From the IMG/VR virus record IMGVR_UViG_2711768052_000001, positions 1 through 43,044 of that record: 43,044 nt of DNA, one strand, 5' to 3'. This document shows, piece after piece, positions 1,427 to 35,047 of this stretch. Every line of letters begins with the position of its first letter. Position 1 is the stretch's first letter. The stretch is from a virus (lineage: Duplodnaviria; Heunggongvirae; Uroviricota; Caudoviricetes). The translations under genes were made by a program, and so were the position numbers. The notes under the pieces are model-generated. The model had not been told where the DNA came from and did no database searches. It saw nothing but the letters and a program-made list of their open reading frames with translations.

Positions 1427-3898
1427 TTATTGCAGGCGATTCGCAGCATCTCCAACAGAGCCAGTAAAAGCAACGCTTGCACTTACTCCTATAGGGGGGT
1501 TCCCATTTTCAAATGTACAGCCTTGTATTGAGTCGTAATCAGTTAGGTCTGGAGAGACAGGGCTATTAATAAACCTAACAGAATTCCACTCGGCTCTTGG
1601 TAGCTGTGATGAAGAACCACCAGAAGAACTTGGTAATGCGTAGACAAATCCGCCAGATACTTTTATAAAAGAATCCATGTTCCTTCCACCTGATGAGTCT
1701 GTTAGTGAAATAATAAAGCAATCAACTAGGTTTAGTCTGCCTGGGATATCAAACTGACCTGAAAAACCATAAAAGTTACGTACATTTATTTCTGGAACAA
1801 CAGACGGAGTAGGAAAACTGGACACCTCAGTCTGCGTATACATGCACATAAGTGTCTGGACTGCAGTATTCTGACTTGCGCTCTGATGGTCTTTTTGAAA
1901 ACCACTGTGAATATTCTCAATATTAATTATTGAGTTAAAGAAAGCCCGATTATTAGTAGAGGCAACTGCGGCAGTTGTTCCACGCAAATCCGGGAGAATA
2001 ACTGGTGCTATTTTCGCAGTCCTCGGAGGTTTGCTATATTTAATATCTTTCACAGTGATACTTGATGGCATTAGTACGCTGGGGAGTATGTAATTCCCGT
2101 TGTAGTTAATTGCGACAAAAGTTAGCCATGAATCTAGTATTGCGTCATTAAACACCTCTACCGTAATGTTTTTCACAGTAACCGCCGTACCCCACGGAAC
2201 TGGTGCTGTATAGCCATAATCAGGAGTTGTTGAACTTGTTGTGCTAACACCGGCATTGAACGACACGCATGATAGAATTCCTGGTGCGGTCTCCGATGCA
2301 GAAGAAAATGATAATTCCCTCGACATCTTATACGAAATATTTTCAACAGTAATATCACCATCAAAGTAACTACCGTAATCCTCCCGCATAAAGATAACAC
2401 TTCGACGAGTTTTATCTATGTTATTTGCACTGGTTCCAGTTAGGTCTGTCTGAGATCCAAGATATTTGGCACAATTAGAGACTCTAAGATAACCTCCACC
2501 AACACCAATGAACACACCAAATTCGTGTAACTTAGTGTGATTAACGTCTATGTCGAAAAGATGATAATGTCCATCTACCCGATTTAAAGTTGAATTAGTA
2601 ACTATCAAATCTCTCGATTTATTCAGACCAATAGCTCCCCAACCTTGCACAGCATTAACGTTATCAAGAATTATTTCAGCTGCGTAGTTACTCCCCAAGA
2701 GATACGACCCATTGTTCGCGTTATAACTTGACATGGCTTCTGCAGATATGTTATCGAACCTTATCTGACTAACACCATCACCAAGATAAAATATCTGCCT
2801 GATGTTTGTTACCTTAATATTGTCGTCTTGCCGTACAGTTATATCAGAAAACTTAACCTGTGACCTTAACGCTTTAAAAACAACACCTGACGTCATACCA
2901 GACGTATCAATGTGAGCGCCTTCAACTTTCAACCAGAAGTCTTCATCAGGTCTGAAATAGGCCTCCGGAGAGGGTGATGCAGTAAAATCATGCTCAAGAG
3001 GATATTGTAAACCTCCGTATTTTGTTACACGGTTTATCGTTGTTTTGTAATATGTTGGTGCAACTTCAGCAATCTGGCGTTTGCACAGAGGATCTCTTGT
3101 ATCCATCCAAAAAGTACCACGGCTATATGTAATCATGCCGCCATAAAGAGCCATCTCACCTTTTCTCATTCCTCCTTGCGATATTTTAGAGGTAACATTT
3201 TCTGAATTTTTCCCTTGTAGAGAATAAGTTGGAGTTGTGTCAAATGAAGGCTCTCCAGAAAACTGCGGTCTAATTACGCATCCATTGAAATAAACTGGCG
3301 TTCTTACCTCTATGTTAGCCTTTGCGTCCATGGTGATTTCTGAAACATCATATAAAACAGGAATACCAAGTGTGTTTGCTTTTTTGTGAGCTAATCTTAA
3401 TTTTTCTGTTTCATCACCAACTCCGATAACACCGAAGTCTGAGATCTGTATAAATGGTTTTCTTTTTAATATATCCCCAATTGAGCCAGATGGATATGAA
3501 ATATCAGGATTAAATCCAACATATCCAGCACCATACTCTGATTCAATTATCGCTCTAAACTGATCAGGGTCATACTTCAGCACATTAGGAAAATTGAACT
3601 GCTGTGCACCATATGCATCATAAACAGCCATAGAATGGCCTTGTACAGTTACGAATTTGGCAATCTGTCCGTTATATACCGGATATCCAGCAGCGTTAAT
3701 GATGATTGGCTGTTCAACAGGAACGTGAGAGCCGTCTTCGTTCTCCACATAAACCTGAATCTGGTTTTCAGGATTTACCGGGTCCGTGTCAATTTTACCG
3801 ATATAGATTTTGCCATTGGCTACGGCTTTAAAAGAACGAGCCATAGTGAAGAGTTGCGAAGGCATGCTCACTACAACATTGGCTGTAATGTCTGTCAT
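1427..3898 (-). CDS. Tailspike protein (823 aa) with P22-type N-terminal head-binding domain and a divergent receptor-binding domain
   Basis: First about 110 aa ([11 protein letters not shown]...[13 protein letters not shown]...DTDPVNP...YDPDQ) closely match the P22 gp9 head-binding domain; the remainder is unrelated to P22, Sf6 or HK620 spikes as far as I recall. Confidence 0.9.
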
Positions 3899-4030
3899 TT
3901 AATTTGCTCCAGATACAATGAATCGCCGCAGCATGGCTACGGTTGATGTTTGTTGCATACCGAAATGGTACGATTGTTGATTTGTACAGTAGGTTTTACG
4001 ATGCCATTCCACCCATTTGGTGAGGCATTG

Positions 4031-4288
4031 ATGATGTACAGCAAATACGATGAGGCGCAGTTCCACTTGAGGCTTACGCACGAGTTGCACGCTAAGATTA
4101 AGCAGCGTGCAAAAATGAATAACAGGTCTATCAATTCCGAAATTGTGGCTACGATGGAAGAATCACTCTCCAAACCATCACCTGTAAGCGGGTATCGTGA
4201 TGAAGAAGAGAGGTTGGCCTCATTAATCTCGGAGCGAGTAAAAGAAGTTGCGGCTGATATCCTTAGAAAAGAAAAAACCCGCGATTAA
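4031..4288 (+). CDS. mnt: Mnt-like ribbon-helix-helix repressor, copy 1 (85 aa)
   Basis: MMYSKYDEAQFHLRLTHELHAKIKQRAKMNNRSINSEIVATMEESLSKPSPVSGYR resembles P22 Mnt (RHH fold, KPSPVTGYR motif); GAGG SD 5 nt upstream of ATG 4031. Confidence 0.7.
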   Translation: MMYSKYDEAQFHLRLTHELHAKIKQRAKMNNRSINSEIVATMEESLSKPSPVSGYRDEEERLASLISERVKEVAADILRKEKTRD

Positions 4289-4296
4289 GCGGGTTT
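4277..4296. terminator. Bidirectional rho-independent terminator between convergent mnt copy 1 and the 73-aa ORF
   Basis: Hairpin acccgc/gcgggt flanked by an A-run upstream and a T-rich stretch downstream; the mnt stop codon lies in the loop. Confidence 0.5.
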
Positions 4297-4302
4297 AGTT
4301 GG

Positions 4303-4524
4303 TTAGTTATCAAAAAGTCCGTACGTTTCTTCTTCTTCAGGTGTAAGGGGAAGAATCTCTACTCTATCTATAGATATCTTTTCAATGTACCCATGAGGTC
4401 TACTTAAAATTAAAGCTCTCTCATGCCACAGAACTCCAAGAATGTGATACCTTCCAGCATCGCCTTTTACCCTGGCTCTTCCTTTGATTCTTGGCGGCAT
4501 AATGCCATATTTTTTCTTTGCCAT
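4303..4524 (-). CDS. Hypothetical protein (73 aa), last gene of the arc-ant operon
   Basis: ORF with ATGA start/stop overlap to the upstream antirepressor ORF; basic N-terminus. Confidence 0.5.
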   Translation of the reverse strand: MAKKKYGIMPPRIKGRARVKGDAGRYHILGVLWHERALILSRPHGYIEKISIDRVEILPLTPEEEETYGLFDN

Positions 4525-5252
4525 TATGCAACATTACTCCCATGAATCAGGTGTTGTAGTGCTTTAACACCTTCCTCATTGTAGCGGAATGCTTCCACCT
4601 GTTTGCTGGAATGCGCAGATTTATCCAGGAAGAACTTCCCGTACTGCTCAGTTTTGAGGTTGTTTGCGTTAGCAATGCGACCAATCTTGTTGGCCGTTAC
4701 CCCAAGCTGCTCTGCAACCTCCCCTGCTGAGTAGTAATGCTCTTCTATTGCTGGAAGAGGTATTGCATTAAAACCAACGATCGGGTTGATTATGCTTGCT
4801 GCCGCAGTCTGCTTTGCTTCCGGCGCAAGATTTGGCATCAAATCGAACAGATTGGTAACAGCTTCAACCGTCATTTTCAATGTTCGCGCCTGGCGATACT
4901 CAACAAGTCCACTAGACGATTTACCGCTTTTAATGTGCGCTTCTTGCATACTTTCAAGTTGGTCTACAAGTGAGCGGCGAACAGCTTTAGATTCACGAGC
5001 AGCCACTCGAAGGGCTTGCTTAATTGACATAACAACTTTTTCAGAAGTTGTCTTGTTTGATTTTTGAACTACGAAAATTTCGTAGTGCTCACCTTCAAGT
5101 TCATCCTTAATGCGTGCAATAAAGTCGTTATTGCGGACTTCTTTTTCCCCGCACTGTCTACGAGCATGATTGACCATCTCTAACAGGTACTGGCTATCAA
5201 TGGTTTTATCCGTGACAACGGATCCGATGTTTGCTACATTCTTAAAAGTCAT
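4524..5252 (-). CDS. Antirepressor-like protein, KilAC/ANT-type C-terminal domain (242 aa)
   Basis: ORF 4524..5303 trimmed to Met18 with AAGGAA SD; C-terminal segment YYSAGEVAEQLGVTANKIGRIANANNLK resembles phage antirepressor KilAC domains; sits in the immI-like module. Confidence 0.6.
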   Translation of the reverse strand: MTFKNVANIGSVVTDKTIDSQYLLEMVNHARRQCGEKEVRNNDFIARIKDELEGEHYEIFVVQKSNKTTSEKVVMSIKQALRVAARESKAVRRSLVDQLESMQEAHIKSGKSSSGLVEYRQARTLKMTVEAVTNLFDLMPNLAPEAKQTAAASIINPIVGFNAIPLPAIEEHYYSAGEVAEQLGVTANKIGRIANANNLKTEQYGKFFLDKSAHSSKQVEAFRYNEEGVKALQHLIHGSNVA

Positions 5253-5340
5253 TAGGCATTCCTTATGTGGTAGTAAGGGTGTGACATAGGCCGCCAGCAG
5301 CACACTGGCGGTTTTCTTTTTGCGCCGTCCGGCGCACCAA

Positions 5341-5967
5341 TCAATGAATCCATTCCTCGCCGCGCAGTTTTGCCAGCATTGGCTGAGCGTTCTTTACGAC
5401 AAAATTGTTGGTATCAAGATTCTTCATTTCACGAAGAAGTGATTTCTTGGTTTCTTCTGACATGTAGCGAGTCTCATATGCAATATCGTAAATCCTTCCT
5501 GAAAGCTCAGAACCAATTTGCTTCATTCCTGGGTAGATGTGTTTGCACATTTGTTGACTCTTCTCCATCCACAATTGTAAGTAGCAGAGATTAACCAGTT
5601 CTTCGTCAGTAAACTGTTTTGCAATCGGTGAGCATTCTGCCTGCCGATCCAAAATATCCAGCACCCAGCGGCGGAACTCTTTGGCTACCTGAGTGCGAGC
5701 AAACATCGCGATTAGGTGGGCACCGCGTAGTGAGAAAACACGCACTTTTTTGCGATAATTTCCTGAGGTACTCACTTCGAGTACCTGAGTCATTCCGGCG
5801 CTAAACTCATCGCTATACTTGTTATAAATCATTGTTACTGCACGACTATTTGCGTATTTAAGTGCAGATGCAATATTAGATGATGTAAACCAAACACCAT
5901 GCATATCACGGGTGGGCACCAATTCAACTCCGTGGAAGTTATAATCTGATTTTGCTACAATATTCAT
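5341..5967 (-). CDS. ant: Antirepressor, Bro-N domain protein (208 aa)
   Basis: ORF 5341..6051 trimmed to MNIVAKS with AAGGAA SD; N-terminal region (GVWFTSSNIASAL...LISE-like...FRRWVLDIL) fits the Bro-N fold; immediately downstream of arc. Confidence 0.7.
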   Translation of the reverse strand: MNIVAKSDYNFHGVELVPTRDMHGVWFTSSNIASALKYANSRAVTMIYNKYSDEFSAGMTQVLEVSTSGNYRKKVRVFSLRGAHLIAMFARTQVAKEFRRWVLDILDRQAECSPIAKQFTDEELVNLCYLQLWMEKSQQMCKHIYPGMKQIGSELSGRIYDIAYETRYMSEETKKSLLREMKNLDTNNFVVKNAQPMLAKLRGEEWIH

Positions 5968-6040
5968 GTTAGTTTCCTTGCATACGGTTACTGACATAGA
6001 GGCCCGGTTTGTGTTCACGCACTGCCGGGCTTCACTATTT

Positions 6041-6214
6041 TTACTGGGCATTAGCTCTTTCCTCTCTCAGGCTTTTAGCCAGTCGCTGCACAATCGCAGA
6101 GTTGATAGAAATTCCATCCATTTCAGCAACACGTCTAATCTCCTCCTTCATTCGCGCTGGCAAACGAAGCTGGAAACTTTGACTTTTACGACCTGTGTAA
6201 AGCACATCTTTCAT
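6041..6214 (-). CDS. arc: Arc-like ribbon-helix-helix repressor (57 aa)
   Basis: MKDVLYTGRKSQSFQLRLPARMKEEIRRVAEMDGISINSAIVQRL resembles P22 Arc; GGAGG SD upstream of ATG 6214; divergent from mnt copy 2. Confidence 0.75.
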   Translation of the reverse strand: MKDVLYTGRKSQSFQLRLPARMKEEIRRVAEMDGISINSAIVQRLAKSLREERANAQ

Positions 6215-6241
6215 AAGTAATCCTCCCACAATGATACCAAC

Positions 6242-6257
6242 TTGGTTCTAGAACCAA
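6242..6257. promoter_or_regulatory. Candidate operator: perfect 16-bp palindrome TTGGTTCTAGAACCAA in the arc/mnt divergent promoter region
   Basis: Perfect dyad between divergent RHH repressor genes; a partial second copy caagttggtg lies about 35 bp downstream. Confidence 0.5.
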
Positions 6258-6325
6258 TTTAACACCATTTATTTTGATGTCAAGTTGGTGCTATTGTTTA
6301 GCGAACATCTTTACGTTGAGGTCAT

Positions 6326-6646
6326 ATGAGCAAGTTCCCTAGTCATGAAATGGATAGGTTCAATATCAGGCTTCCTGCAGGAATGCGGGATGCTATAGCT
6401 GAACGAGCCAAACGTAACGGCAGATCAATGAACTCAGAGATTGTTCAGATACTGGAAGATGCCTTGAATGCAGAAAATACACTCGGGGAAATAGCAGATA
6501 AAATCAACAGCGTCTCGGTTCCGCTAAATGTTGATGCGCTAGTTCAACTTCAAGCCCAGGTTATCGCCATGCAAAAAGAAATACAGGAAAAGTTCAGAGA
6601 GCAGAACGAAAAGTTGAGAGAACTGCTAAACAAAAAAACCACCTGA
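6326..6646 (+). CDS. mnt: Mnt-like ribbon-helix-helix repressor, copy 2 (106 aa)
   Basis: MSKFPSHEMDRFNIRLPAGMRDAIAERAKRNGRSMNSEIVQILEDAL: RHH N-terminus plus C-terminal coiled coil; GAGG SD; divergent from arc as in P22 immI. Confidence 0.7.
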   Translation: MSKFPSHEMDRFNIRLPAGMRDAIAERAKRNGRSMNSEIVQILEDALNAENTLGEIADKINSVSVPLNVDALVQLQAQVIAMQKEIQEKFREQNEKLRELLNKKTT

Positions 6647-6671
6647 CGGTGGGTTAATTTTTGCCTTTTTT
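6637..6671 (+). terminator. Rho-independent terminator after mnt copy 2
   Basis: aaccacc-tgac-ggtgggtt hairpin followed by aatttttgcctttttt. Confidence 0.6.
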
Positions 6672-6744
6672 GGACCATATTGACTACTCATAAAATGAGA
6701 TCAATATTTAATCGCCCAATAACGGGTGCATGTTGAGGTATATC

Positions 6745-6924
6745 ATGGCGAAAAAACCAGGTGAAAACACAGGAAAAAACGGCGGAATATACCAAGAAGT
6801 TGGCCCGCGCGGAGGTAAGAAAGACAATTTTGCCACCGTCAAGGACAACGAAAGGCTTCCGCCAACAACAAAGCCAGGTCATGGCTGGGTATTAGATAAG
6901 CGAACTCCAGACAGCAAAAAGTAA
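6745..6924 (+). CDS. Small hydrophilic protein (59 aa) with KGG-like glycine/lysine motifs
   Basis: MAKKPGENTGKNGGIYQEVGPRGGKKDNF...; GAGGT SD 7 nt upstream; terminator hairpin directly after the stop. Confidence 0.45.
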   Translation: MAKKPGENTGKNGGIYQEVGPRGGKKDNFATVKDNERLPPTTKPGHGWVLDKRTPDSKK

Positions 6925-6930
6925 TAATCA

Positions 6931-6952
6931 AGCCGGGTCACTCCGGCTTTTT
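6931..6952. terminator. Bidirectional terminator hairpin shared by convergent genes
   Basis: agccgg-gtcact-ccggct followed by ttttt; the stop codon of minus-strand ORF 6938..7303 lies in the loop. Confidence 0.5.
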
Positions 6953-7303
6953 GATATGTCGCTCGCAGAACTCAACAAGCCTGCTCATTAAGTAGCAGTA
7001 AGTCTCGTTGGCTCTTCCTGGTTCAACATCAACGCCGACCCTTGAGCAGATATCGAATGCCATGTGAGCGCACTCATGGGCAATAGTAGATAGTTTGCCA
7101 TTGAACACACCTATCACATGCAAAACACCATTCTCGCTGCTCATTGTATGAGACGCTCCGTTGGCATCCGAGTCCTGCACGTCCACGCCAAGTTTTTGAT
7201 GCAGGCGTTGCCATTCTGGAAAGTCTCTGCAAAACACAATTGTACCGCTCTCAAAGAGCGGAACGAGCATTTTTGGTACGTTTCCAATGTTAACTTTTTT
7301 CAT
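6938..7303 (-). CDS. Hypothetical protein (121 aa) with HExxH motif (possible zinc metallopeptidase-like fold)
   Basis: Contains IAHECAHMAFD (HExxH) and several Cys; ATG start; at the P22 sieA-equivalent position between the ejection genes and immI. Confidence 0.6.
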   Translation of the reverse strand: MKKVNIGNVPKMLVPLFESGTIVFCRDFPEWQRLHQKLGVDVQDSDANGASHTMSSENGVLHVIGVFNGKLSTIAHECAHMAFDICSRVGVDVEPGRANETYCYLMSRLVEFCERHIKKPE

Positions 7304-7333
7304 GGTATCCTGCTCAAAACTAAGGAGGTTGGT

Positions 7334-7561
7334 GTGAAGCGATGGTTCCTCATAATTACTGTTTTCGCGATCATTTACACTATTTTCCCTGCATTAAAAG
7401 CACCAATGCAAATAATTTCGCTAGCAATAATTGCAATTGGTGCTTTCATTGCAGTAGCCGTACTTGTGTTTAAGGTTTTAAAGTTTTTAGTTTGGCTATC
7501 AAAAGATGATGGATGCAAAGTTCATCAAGAAAAAGAAGGCAAAATAACCAAAGTTGACTAA
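7334..7561 (+). CDS. Small membrane protein (75 aa, two predicted TM helices), GTG start
   Basis: AAGGAGG SD 5 nt upstream of GTG 7334; hydrophobic segments FLIITVFAIIYTIF and IISLAIIAIGAFIAVAVLVF; stop codon overlaps the stop of the convergent ejection gene. Confidence 0.55.
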   Translation: MKRWFLIITVFAIIYTIFPALKAPMQIISLAIIAIGAFIAVAVLVFKVLKFLVWLSKDDGCKVHQEKEGKITKVD

Positions 7562-9681
7562 CTGTCACTAGCGAGCCATGTAATAATCCCCGTGCGGGCA
7601 ATGGTTTTTGCTTCATCTGTTGATAAGGTTTTCTCCCATCTCTTAAATGCCCCAGATTGCATCAGTTTCCTTTCTATTACGCGTCTCACTTCTGCTCTGT
7701 CTACTGGTGCGTTTTGCAGGCGAAATAGCATTGATTTAAACTCAGGAGAAGACAGTAGAGCATCAGCAGCCTTTATCCTGCTTGTTTTCCCTGACATCAA
7801 TGCTGACGTTATCACCCCTGTTGCACCTACACCAGGAAGACCAGATAAGCTTGTAATACCTTCCGCCGCAGCAGCTTTTGAGGCTATTCCATAAATTTTT
7901 GCGAGACTACCCTTTTCTTTCAGAAAGTTATTAACTTGCTGATCCACAAGGCTGCTAGCATACTGCTTACCAGTATTGAGTCTATTCATAGCCTTGGCTG
8001 CTTGATAAATCGTATCAAGGCGCTTTGATGCATCTGTGCCAATAGCATCACGGAGAGCCTTCATATTGGCCCCATTGCGTGACATTCCGTTATACCATTT
8101 TACAAATCCATCAACCCCTAATTGCTGGCCTGGTGATTTAGCATAGCTGGTAAATGCTTTATTCATTGAGGTGAGCGCAACTTCCTGCCGCATATCCTTT
8201 GGAATTGACTTCATTAATTGCCTAAAGTCACCACCGTTTCCTTTTGCCATATTAACAACGGCACTTTCAACTTTTGGAATTGCTGATTGCTGAAGTTTTC
8301 TACCCAAAACGGTTACGGCATCATCTTCAATGGATTTTCGTGTTTTTACCAACTCCTTACCAAGCGTCCATAACTCCCCTGCGCCATATTTTTCTGCGAC
8401 AGCCTGTTGGTCATCTGTTATAGCCGCATATAACTTTTTAAGAACACCTGTTTCTTCATCCTTGAATGGGCCAGAGCCTTTGCCAATAGCTTGCCCAACC
8501 TGCTTTCTAGCGAGATCTAAACGCCCATACGTTGGCAAGGTGTTTGGATCAAGTCGGTTCAATGTCCGCTTCATTATTGGAGATAATTCATCAATTCCAC
8601 CTATATCATCAGCAAAATCCTCTAAAAAATTCAATGTATTAGTTGCCTCAATCCGGTCTCTTACAGGAACCTTTTCGGCAATTTTGTTGTAGATGTTATC
8701 TGACTGATTTTGTAATGATGAAATGGTTTTATCAAAATTATCTGCAAGCCTGTCAGAAACCAGTTGCTTATCAAGGCTTCCCCCAAATGAAGTTATCATT
8801 TCATCAGCTTTTCTTCCTAATTCAGTAATAAAACGCTTATGCGCCTCACTAATCTCTGTTCCAGGGAGACTTGCCACTGCATTATCAAGAGCCCTGACAG
8901 CAGGATTATTAGAGATCATGCCTGGAGTGGCATAATTTTCCAGTTCTAGCTCACGAATAGCATTTATCGCGTTAAAATCAGGATTAACTTCATCGGCGAA
9001 ATCTTGAATAGCTCGTTGCCCGCCGATAAATTTATTGTCCATTGCGCCAGCAGCTTTCTTTAACGTTGCTTTAGATGATTTACTACCCATCCCTACGGAT
9101 GAGCGATAAATATCTCCGGCACTATTTTTAATTTTTCCTGCAATCTTCCCAAGCGCTGGACCAACAATCTCTGCTACAGGGCCAGCCACAGCGCCAATAG
9201 CAGCTCCAGAAGCAACATCGCTATTTGTTCCATTGGCTACAATAGCCCCTTCTCCAGCACCAAGCCCTGCGGCGGCAGCCAGCCTTGCCGCCCCTTTCGG
9301 AACCTGAGAAATAATCCCACCACCACTAACAAATGGCGCTGCTTGTCCAACAAACTCACCAACATCTTGTGCGGTTGATGGTTTTGCCGCTAACTTCTGC
9401 TGTAGAGACTGAATTGCGGCTTGCTCTTCTGGTGTCATATCCTGAAACAGGCCAACACCTTTACCAACATCCATCAATCCACTGAGAACGCCATACATAA
9501 AACGGTCGAAACCGTTAGCATTATTAACAACATTTTCCTGTCTGGAATTTTCCTCTGGCGAAACCAAAGGTGATTGCTGCTGTTCTGGTTGGGCATCAAG
9601 CACAAAACCATCAGGAAGCTGTGAGTTATCAGGCTGATTATCGAGAACAAAGCCTTCGGGTAAACCTACATCGGTTGCCAT
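7558..9681 (-). CDS. DNA ejection/injection protein, P22 gp16-like (707 aa)
   Basis: Last gene of a conserved P22-order block (gp14, gp7, gp20, gp16); size and Gly/Ala-rich composition fit. Confidence 0.85.
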
Positions 9682-33006: not shown

Positions 33007-33035
33007 ATAATACGATATGTACTTTTAGAATGCAA
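33007..33035 (-). promoter_or_regulatory. Candidate PR promoter (-35 TTGCAT, 17-bp spacer, -10 TATTAT) with an operator-like 15-mer in the spacer
   Basis: Minus strand TTGCAT-tctaaaagtacatatcg-TATTAT about 25 nt upstream of the cro ATG; the spacer 15-mer AAGTACATATCGTAT resembles the one in PL. Confidence 0.55.
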
Positions 33036-33092
33036 ACAAAAAAATACATCTTGTGCATGGATGGTTTTAGTACAGAGCGTAATAATAAGGGT

Positions 33093-33752
33093 ATGAAAAT
33101 GAAATGGTATGAACTGGCTAGATCCAGAATGAAAGAGCTCGGCATAACTCAAGAGAGGTTAGCTGAAGAGCTTGGTATGACGCAGGGTGGAATTGGTCAC
33201 TGGTTGCGCGGATCTCGTCATCCATCTCTTGACGAGATTGGTGTGGTGTTTAAATACCTTGGTATTGATAACGTCTCATTCAACCACGACGGTACATTTT
33301 CACCTGTTGGCGAATACTCTCTGCCCCCGTTAAAAAAACAATATGAGTACCCTGTTTTTTCTCATGTTCAGGCCGGGATGTTCTCGCCTGAGCTTAGAAC
33401 CTTTACCAAAGGTGATGCGGAGAGATGGGTCAGCACAACCAAAAAAGCCAGTGATTGTGCGTTCTGGCTTGAAGTTGAAGGTAATTCCATGACCGCGCCA
33501 ACAGGATCCAAGCCAAGCTTTCCTGACGGGATGTTAATTCTCGTTGACCCTGAGCAGGCTGTTGAGCCAGGTGATTTCTGCATAGCCAGACTTGGTGGTG
33601 ACGAGTTTACCTTCAAGAAACTGATCAGGGATAGCGGTCAGGTGTTCCTACAGCCACTAAACCCGCAATATCCAATGATTCCATGCAATGATAGCTGTTC
33701 CGTAGTAGGGAAAGTTATCGCCAGCCAGTGGCCTGAAGAGACATTTAGTTAA
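33093..33752 (+). CDS. cI: CI repressor (about 219 aa): non-lambda N-terminal HTH domain fused to a lambda-like C-terminal S24 peptidase/dimerisation domain
   Basis: C-terminal about 115 aa ([30 protein letters not shown]...EVEGNSMT...) recalled as near-identical to lambda CI; N-terminal HTH differs; start may be 33093 or 33099 (ORF track 33030). Confidence 0.9.
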
Positions 33753-34864: not shown

Positions 34865-34892
34865 AGGCCGAATATTCGGCCTTTATTTTTAG
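34865..34892 (+). terminator. Rho-independent terminator after the membrane-protein gene
   Basis: Perfect palindrome aggccgaatattcggcct followed by ttatttttag. Confidence 0.55.
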
Positions 34893-34912: not shown

Positions 34913-35047
34913 ATGAACGCAGTTGAATTTACAAAATGGATGGCAGAGCAAGATATCACAGGAGCCGACGAAAAGGCTGTGTACTACATGGCTATGCTAT
35001 GGATTCACAAAGCAAAAGAGGCTGCAAATGCTCTTGGAGGTGAGTGA
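34913..35047 (+). CDS. Hypothetical small protein (44 aa)
   Basis: Hand-translated MNAVEFTKWMAEQDITGADEKAVYYMAMLWIHKAKEAANALGGE; AGAGGTGA SD; stop overlaps the next ATG. Confidence 0.4.
   Translation: MNAVEFTKWMAEQDITGADEKAVYYMAMLWIHKAKEAANALGGE

Follow-up and report, generated by a model that had tools for sequence, protein, structure and literature searches.

The DNA analysed here, which we call the window, is the whole 43,044-nucleotide IMG/VR virus record IMGVR_UViG_2711768052_000001, and it is a complete P22-like prophage. Its positions 3899..7557 hold the variable gene set that defines an 'ant moron', the immI-type secondary immunity region of P22-like phages, between an open reading frame (ORF) in the position of P22 gene 16 (7558..9681, minus strand; homologues in relatives are annotated as DNA transfer/injection proteins) and the tailspike gene. 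The interval was named by Villafane et al. (2008, PMC2629481), for a changeable set of genes with expression of their own inside the P22-like late operon; it is highly mosaic, with ten types in sixteen P22-like genomes. Judging from its sequence, the region is probably the ant moron of a P22-like Escherichia coli prophage with two independent ribbon-helix-helix (RHH) repressor-operator units, a reading that we hold with good confidence. One unit, built on a gene beside arc that we call mntL1, would control the antirepressor operon; the other, built on an mnt orthologue that we call mnt2, adjoins the tailspike gene and would most likely act through its own operator only. The initial annotation had described an immI-like module in which two Mnt-like repressor genes bracket an arc-antirepressor operon, and this layout was borne out: both repressor genes are intact ORFs with Pfam Arc domains, the operon begins with an arc-type gene and contains a Bro-N/P22_AR_C ant, a Mnt-like repressor is divergent from it, and the far gene is divergent from the tailspike gene on the minus strand. 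The genes concerned are as follows.

1427..3898, minus strand: tailspike gene, an 823-amino-acid ORF homologous to P22 gene 9 with the head-binding N-terminus; one border of the ant moron.
4034..4288, plus strand (in-frame ATG also at 4031): mnt2, the far Arc/Mnt-family gene; 85 amino acids from 4031; Pfam Arc E=4e-15.
4303..4524, minus strand: 73-amino-acid ORF, final gene of the ant operon; PHROG 4977, 1e-53; kept in the Lederbergvirus JEP4 and many viral contigs.
4524..5252, minus strand: second antirepressor-family gene; PHROG 1726 'anti-repressor', 9e-101; its JEP4 counterpart is annotated 'KilA protein'; no Pfam match.
5341..5967, minus strand: ant; Pfam P22_AR_C 2.7e-14 and Bro-N 9.5e-10; PHROG 245 'anti-repressor Ant', 7e-53.
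6041..6214, minus strand: arc-like gene, first in the ant operon; Pfam Arc 8e-12; PDB Arc matches.
6326..6646, plus strand: mntL1, the arc-adjacent Arc/Mnt-family gene; 106 amino acids; Pfam Arc E=1.6e-20.

Alignment to P22 Mnt showed that these are not two copies of one gene. Mnt2 is a full-length, true orthologue: it is alignable from residue 4, shares 47% identity with P22 Mnt across residues 7-79, the C-terminal domain included, and carries the Mnt-type SKPSPVxGYR linker and C-terminal helix, in the part homologous to the tetramerisation region (about residues 45-76) of P22 Mnt. It matches PDB 1MNT residues 3-75 at E=3e-16 and PHROG 795 at 6.5e-33. MntL1, in contrast, is related to P22 Mnt in the RHH domain only, the similarity being confined to its residues 12-48 (54% identity to P22 Mnt residues 8-44); beyond residue 48 we found none to P22 Mnt or Mnt2, and the protein falls into PHROG 1287 rather than 795. 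The far gene itself stands as first described, with a likely change of start from 4031 to the second ATG at 4034, because its relatives have a single ATG and the RefSeq gene of E. coli 55989 is the equivalent of 4034..4288.

When the mnt upstream regions of 13 phages were compared, each showed a palindrome whose distance from the ATG is constant (-58 to -80). The corresponding predicted sites of the window are given below.

3957..3971: Omnt2, predicted operator of Mnt2, ATACCGAAATGGTAC, with arms TACC/GGTA; called from offset, covariation and conservation.
3974..4002, plus strand: Pmnt2, predicted promoter, TTGTTG (3974..3979), 17-bp spacer, TACGAT (3997..4002); the positional equivalent of P22 Pmnt TTGAGA-17-TATCAT.

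Omnt2 lies at -77..-63 from the 4034 ATG (-74..-60 from 4031), and P22 Omnt at -74..-58. ST64T, 720R6, Sf101 and the window all retain the TTG and TAnnAT elements of the Pmnt hexamers. Three operator types pair with three N-terminal DNA-reading strands of Mnt.

P22 and epsilon34: strand DDPHFNFRMP, operator AGGTCCACcGTGGACCT, which is the annotated Omnt; HFNFRMP pairs with GGTCCACcGTGGACC.
ST64T, ST160 and 720R6: strand DDPQFNLRLP, operator AGACCACnGTGGTCT.
The window, JEP4, VSe13, Sf101 and IME10: strand DEAQFHLRL, operator TACC-N5-GGTA (3957..3971 in the window).

Natural chimeric Mnt proteins also occur among the viral contigs (L136-L215; upstream variants u49 and u51-u54), in which an ST64T-type N-terminus, GRDDPQFNLRLPYE, is joined to a Mnt2-type C-terminal half. 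These proteins, with a QFNLRLP N-terminus, come with the AGACCAC-type (ST64T-type) operator AGACCACAGTGGTCT. Because the chimeras carry the operator of their N-terminus donor type, the operator type appears to follow the DNA-binding strand.

Mnt2 relatives are encoded in 219 viral stretches. We examined two samples of viral loci, each capped at 80, one selected by the exact operator and one by the protein. The protein-selected sample was blind to the operator and gave 63 distinct upstream regions for about 75 genes; the TACC and GGTA arms were kept in the 63 regions, while the centre and the remaining spacer varied. The mnt2-type ORF is uninterrupted across 34 distinct protein variants, and the N-terminal domain of the relatives shows a ratio of nonsynonymous to synonymous differences (pN/pS) of 0.07-0.12 at pS 0.7-0.8, a mark of strong purifying selection. 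The operator arms, the promoter, the covariation and the purifying selection together indicate that Mnt2 is an intact repressor-operator unit and not a pseudogene. That it is a functionless leftover of an immI region degraded by arc-ant loss and later joined by a new cassette is, in our estimate, quite improbable. Such an origin would suit the decay of the partner promoter Pant relative to P22, a 'remnant' is considered possible for the mnt-like gene of phage L (PMC8022706), and RNA-seq of lysogens of the related phage Kapi1 detected no expression of its arc-adjacent mnt (PMC12922286), so that prophage expression of mnt genes cannot be assumed. It accords poorly with pN/pS of about 0.1 at near-saturated synonymous divergence and with an ORF intact in so many variants, and also with operator arms and Pmnt hexamers that persist amid a diverging spacer and an operator that covaries with the N-terminus, chimeras included. 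Kapi1 was also considered as a case of tailspike-linked mnt and rejected; its layout is the P22-like single mnt-arc-ant.

The distribution of the unit ties it to the tailspike gene. In every informative locus (about 150 of the 160 examined) the mnt unit adjoins the tailspike gene, and in both the operator-selected (exact operator) and the protein-selected sets it sits between the tailspike N-terminus and mnt. The distance from operator to tailspike start is invariably 55-65 bp, and about 60 bp in the window. No ant gene was present in 57 of the 80 operator-selected and 26 of the 80 protein-selected loci; Sf101, ST64T, ST160 and 720R6 likewise have a tailspike-linked mnt without ant. Some ant moron types, those of ST64T and ST104, were known to keep mnt alone (PMC2629481), and stand-alone mnt genes have been recorded in ST64T, ST104 and L (PMC2629481; PMC8022706). 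The ant cassettes that we examined always bring a divergent repressor of their own, whether of MntL1 type, of another Mnt-like type (contig L138) or of CI/S24 type. JEP4 and about 20 viral contigs, for example, retain ant-KilA-hyp73-mnt2-tailspike (hyp73 being the 73-amino-acid ORF) with the arc-proximal repressor swapped for a helix-turn-helix (HTH) plus Peptidase_S24 protein.

The initial annotation had raised the possibility that the far gene adds a layer of control over antirepressor or tailspike expression. For the antirepressor this would mean a second repressor, active at Pant or at another place in the operon, so that two repressors of the same ant operon would have to be lost before it is expressed. 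Mnt2 is indeed orthologous to the P22 repressor of Pant, mnt2 is convergent with the ant operon through a common terminator, and ant, the KilA-like gene, hyp73 and mnt2 occur as a group in loci of the JEP4 type and of the window type. The search for sites nevertheless gave the proposal no support: TACC-N5-GGTA was found once in the 43-kb window, directly upstream of mnt2, and a search for the full Omnt2 motif (up to 3 mismatches) and for TACC-N5-GGTA found none at the ant promoter, with the near matches in 4300..6330 at chance level. Because a divergent repressor of its own comes with each ant cassette that was examined, and the unit is common without ant, Mnt2 as a second layer on this ant promoter is argued against, and we regard it as very improbable. 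The further suggestion of a second specificity fared better. The recognition strands of the two Mnt-family proteins differ (RFNIRLP in MntL1, QFHLRLT in Mnt2) and come with different palindromes, so the predicted DNA specificities differ as well. Matches to the MntL1-type site ACCAACTTGGT near mnt2 and the tailspike gene had two mismatches at best (e.g. 4011..4021) and were judged to be chance.

The constant neighbourhood of the unit raises the possibility that Mnt2 at Omnt2, together with head-on mnt2 transcription, limits late or ant-operon transcription into gene 9. We find this conceivable, if somewhat doubtful. The operator always lies 55-65 bp from the tailspike start in a unit that is kept under purifying selection without ant, and the P22 ant moron affects late-transcription readthrough into the tailspike gene, a process in which Mnt and Arc may take part (Villafane et al., PMC2629481). 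On the other side, no surviving promoter faces the tailspike gene. The P22 arrangement, with mnt divergent from a functional ant promoter that its operator overlaps, is not seen at mnt2: the gene divergent from it is the tailspike gene, and the P22 Pant hexamers TTGACA/TATATT correspond to ATGGCA/ACAAAT in the mnt2-tailspike spacer of the window; a promoter scan of this spacer (3899..4030), together with the P22 hexamer comparison, found no sigma-70-like promoter in that direction. The only scan site in the spacer (plus strand, 3892..3919) was dismissed, its -10 hexamer being conserved neither in relatives nor in P22. Moreover, Sf6 and similar P22-like phages without the whole moron still make tailspike (PMC2629481), and an RHH tetramer would have to be able to block an antiterminated polymerase. 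The tailspike N-terminal region and 5' untranslated region are homologous to P22 gene 9, and the latter contains one further element.

3926..3942, minus strand: RNA hairpin in the tailspike 5' untranslated region, CCGUAGC-CAU-GCUGCGG in the tailspike sense; also in P22.

The stem of this hairpin is kept in 12 diverse relatives, with two compensatory pairs and with G-U wobbles that pair on the minus strand only; it lies about 25 nt before the tailspike ribosome-binding site, with no U run after it.

Alternatively, Mnt2 may act on superinfecting phages with an Omnt2-type operator, silencing their ant promoter and so guarding the prophage from induction. The Mnt of a P22 prophage represses ant of an incoming phage (PMC2629481), the predicted specificities of Mnt2 and MntL1 differ, and stand-alone mnt persists in phages without ant. 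We nonetheless rate this role as rather unlikely, given that an Omnt2-type operator or Mnt2-type protein was never beside an arc-ant operon in the informative loci and that no target phage is known. More broadly, and only tentatively, the tailspike-linked Mnt2/Omnt2 pair could be a distinct regulatory module, widely conserved among P22-like phages, with a job of its own, in tailspike gating or trans-immunity, instead of an immI leftover, in which case the region would contain two orthogonal RHH circuits.

The other unit occupies the position of P22 immI control. MntL1 takes exactly the place of P22 mnt: from the final codons of its gene through the terminator and orf59a, the sequence is about 97% identical to P22. 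The gene is divergent from arc-ant, and a palindrome covers the start site of the ant promoter. Many Shiga toxin (Stx) phages encode 'Arc family' proteins with 93% identity to MntL1, and over its first 50 residues MntL1 shares 78% identity with proteins of the Salmonella siphophages SPN3UB and Oslo. A single-sequence AlphaFold2 model of low confidence (mean pLDDT, the per-residue confidence score, 66) places a long helix at 69-105 in its C-terminal half (helix block-mean about 68-85). MntL1 may work like Mnt, by oligomerising, but is no Mnt orthologue. The control region of the ant operon is laid out as follows.

6283..6278 and 6261..6256, minus strand: Pant, -35 TTGACA and -10 TAAATT, respectively, with a 16-bp spacer; promoter scan 10/12.
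6236..6246: O1, ACCAACTTGGT, palindrome in the control region 6236..6297.
6242..6257: O2, TTGGTTCTAGAACCAA, perfect 16-bp palindrome, unique in the window, overlapping -10/+1 of Pant.
6262..6269: block ACACCATT, shared with contig L138.
6279..6289: O3, inverted partner over the -35, 42-43 bp from O1.
6289..6297, plus strand: candidate mntL1 promoter, TGcTATTGT.

Pant is the best promoter-like site in the scanned interval 3500..7400, and the perfect palindrome reported in the initial annotation between arc and the 6326 gene was recovered as O2. We rejected the idea that a palindrome of this size is statistically exceptional, as the window contains two and dinucleotide shuffles average 0.81, with at least one in 56% of them; its significance comes from its position and conservation, not from rarity. 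O1-O3 are 100% conserved in phage Oslo, where the flanks and the overall match are about 76% identical. The second perfect 16-bp palindrome, GGCCGAATATTCGGCC at 34866..34881, looks like an intrinsic terminator because TTTATTTTT comes next; an ORF start follows shortly at 34914.

Contig L138 offers a natural swap from which sites may be assigned. Its Arc recognition strand is identical to that of the window, its Mnt-like N-terminus reads RFTVRMPDG versus RFNIRLPAG, and ATGACATCA-type palindromes stand in place of the ACCAA/TTGGT repeats, ACACCATT alone being shared with the window. Because the palindromes change with the Mnt-like N-terminus while Arc stays constant, MntL1 would bind the ACCAA/TTGGT sites and Arc would bind near ACACCATT, an assignment that is not settled. 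SPN3UB and the Stx phages were uninformative for this purpose, as both proteins change together there. In the variant cassette of L138, L142 and L170 (Mnt-like RFTVRMPDG), tandem 21-bp palindromes, ATGACATCAccaTGATGTCAT and ATGACACCAttaTGATGCCAT, follow the arc start.

Several points weigh against two independent units as read here. RHH proteins can recognise degenerate and non-palindromic sites, so that Mnt2 may still bind weakly at Pant. Pmnt2 is a weak consensus match, under the 9/12 threshold of the promoter scan, and close relatives predominate in both samples of viral contigs. The assignment of O1-O3 to MntL1 is based on the single swap in L138, and between L138 and the window no common Arc site with a consistent repeat geometry could be defined. 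The undetected mnt of Kapi1 belongs on this side as well.

Within the ant operon, the arc-like product is 42% identical to P22 Arc and ant is 94% DNA-identical to SPN3UB ant. The operon ends in a hairpin, and both of its antirepressor-family genes are overlapped by putative antisense units.

4275..4296, minus strand: terminator hairpin ending the ant operon; 8 pairs, then TTTTCTTTTCT, in the terminator scan.
5235..5324, plus strand: candidate sar2-like antisense unit with an extended -10 TGcTACATT (hexamer 5235..5240), a hairpin at 5288..5314 and a T run; from the promoter and terminator scans.
5953..6042, plus strand: sar homologue, with Psar TGcTACAAT at 5953..5961, a predicted RNA from about 5968 and a terminator hairpin at 5999..6033 plus T run; aligns with the annotated sar/Psar of P22 and epsilon34.

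The hairpin at 4275..4296 had been described as a bidirectional terminator. It holds as one for the ant operon on the minus strand; on the plus strand its T tail is weak, which makes it a weak terminator for mnt2. The sar homologue is antisense to the ribosome-binding site and start codon of ant, has a minimum free energy of -33.3 kcal/mol and takes the two-hairpin shape of P22 sar, and its terminator stem persists across 7 phages, 5 of the pairs having changed on both sides. A Rfam scan of 3500..7500 at E<=1 gave no match, sar included, so that sar is called here from its alignment with the sar annotated in P22 and epsilon34. The stretch 5235..5324 is a probable second sar-like antisense unit that spans both the ribosome-binding site and the start of the antirepressor-family gene at 4524..5252. 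Only on the antisense strand does its hairpin, GCCGCCAG..CTGGCGG, have a T run, and the -10 and the hairpin with T run are kept in 17 variants and in SPN3UB, which has a different downstream gene, despite divergent flanks; no compensatory changes were seen.

From the homologies, site anatomy, conservation, covariation and distribution, we infer DNA binding, protein-site pairing, lysogen expression and the role of the tailspike-side unit, and propose the following working. Unit A (about 4275..6660) would be a self-contained switch in which MntL1 is divergent from Pant. In the lysogen, MntL1 would occupy the ACCAA/TTGGT palindromes over -10/+1 and -35 and keep Pant off; upon infection, or when MntL1 is lost, a burst from Pant would yield Arc, Ant, the second antirepressor-family protein and the 73-amino-acid protein, after which Arc would shut Pant in a negative feedback. 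The sar-type RNA, and probably the second one too, would dampen translation of both antirepressor genes. Ant would inactivate the prophage's own repressor or the repressors of co-resident prophages, the presumed target, by analogy with P22 biology, being a C2/CI-type protein encoded far from the ant moron.

33030..33752, plus strand: C2/CI-type primary repressor; Pfam HTH_3 and Peptidase_S24.

In unit B (3957..4296), Mnt2 would bind Omnt2 and autoregulate; the centre of this operator is about 45 bp upstream of the predicted mnt2 start site. Mnt2 most likely binds its own operator only and is not a repressor of this phage's ant promoter, and it would sit on DNA crossed by transcription heading into the tailspike gene.

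We then set the region beside known systems. It resembles P22 immI in its gene 16-tailspike position, in an RHH repressor gene divergent from arc-ant, in a palindrome across the start of the ant promoter, in a putative sar-type antisense RNA at the arc-ant junction and in the 3' flank (terminator, orf59a), which is about 97% identical. In contrast to P22 immI, the repressor beside arc has just its DNA-binding domain in common with Mnt, and its predicted operators are unrelated in sequence; the operon has two antirepressor-family genes, a 73-amino-acid ORF and probably a second antisense unit; and the real Mnt orthologue is found at the opposite end, where it has a predicted operator of its own and a decayed Pant. 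The stand-alone mnt phages (L, ST64T, ST104, ST160, Sf101, IME10 and VSe13) show the same order of minus-strand tailspike gene, palindromic operator, Pmnt and plus-strand mnt at equal spacing; the operator core of Sf101 and IME10 is identical to that of the window, with Mnt proteins 63-65% identical. They have no functional ant operon there, whereas the unit of the window coexists with a complete, separately controlled ant cassette.

CUS-3 also has two Mnt-family genes in one ant moron, one with a P22-type N-terminus and the other of a different type. Its two annotated mnt genes are, however, tandem and co-directional, both divergent from ant, and an adjacent control region is found at the upstream one only. 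In the same phage we noted an unannotated 46-amino-acid ORF on the minus strand (3465..3605; Pfam Arc 3e-08), directly upstream of the ant region and divergent from the first mnt; in the literature CUS-3 is stated to lack arc. The order plus-strand Mnt-like gene, control region, minus-strand arc and minus-strand ant recurs in Stx2a_WGPS8 and other Stx phages, SPN3UB and vB_SosS_Oslo. In Stx2a_WGPS8, SPN3UB and Oslo, unlike here, the cassette lies inside a lambdoid siphophage tail gene cluster with no second mnt nearby, and the recognition strands and repeats of SPN3UB and the Stx phages differ from those of the window. JEP4 shares 93% DNA identity across 3899..6047 (tailspike 5' end, Omnt2, mnt2, hyp73, KilA-like gene, ant and sar) and differs in its arc-type gene and in its divergent repressor, an HTH plus Peptidase_S24 (CI/LexA-like) protein. 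This HTH_3 plus Peptidase_S24 repressor, at JEP4 6424..7065 and in about 20 contigs such as L136 and L139, is found in otherwise near-identical ant morons, and its CI/LexA-like nature suggests SOS-cleavable antirepressor control in JEP4-type morons.

The remainder of the interval, towards the gene 16 homologue, holds three ORFs.

6745..6924, plus strand: orf59a homologue (the P22 gene 3' of mnt); DNA near-identical to P22 orf59a; PHROG 3202.
6938..7303, minus strand: 121-amino-acid ORF.
7334..7561, plus strand: 75-amino-acid ORF with a strongly hydrophobic stretch and no Pfam match, between the 121-amino-acid ORF and the gene 16 homologue; it occupies the place of P22 sieA and is annotated as hypothetical in E. 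coli 55989.

Three complete E. coli genomes contain the 2.8-kb region with 100% identity and strain 55989 contains it with 99.8%, and at least 80% of the region is present in 19 of 5426 genomes. In E. coli 55989 all three RHH genes are annotated merely as 'Arc family DNA-binding protein', and the tailspike counterpart as 'phage head-binding domain-containing protein'. Our literature searches found no description of this arrangement, nor of the Sf101 mnt. What goes beyond the literature that we found is the evidence for selection maintaining tailspike-linked mnt units with their matching operator, the evidence for their independence from ant, and the probable second sar-like unit. Each component has a known relative, and the combination is one more type of a highly mosaic region that is already present in public genomes (E. 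coli 55989 and others).

Antirepressor modules determine if a prophage, or others resident with it, stays silent. The region shows cassette-wise swapping of such modules, each with its own repressor, operators, arc and antisense RNA, while a second P22-type Mnt unit remains attached to the tailspike gene regardless of the ant cassette swaps. The general picture of P22-type secondary immunity is unchanged. The three natural operator/N-terminus pairs and the chimeras provide a ready specificity series for Mnt-type RHH proteins, and a natural swap of the L138 type could serve to assign operators. Stand-alone mnt genes, earlier viewed as possibly degenerating remnants, have an intact gene, a promoter and a matching operator that are kept under purifying selection, and they therefore probably have a function.

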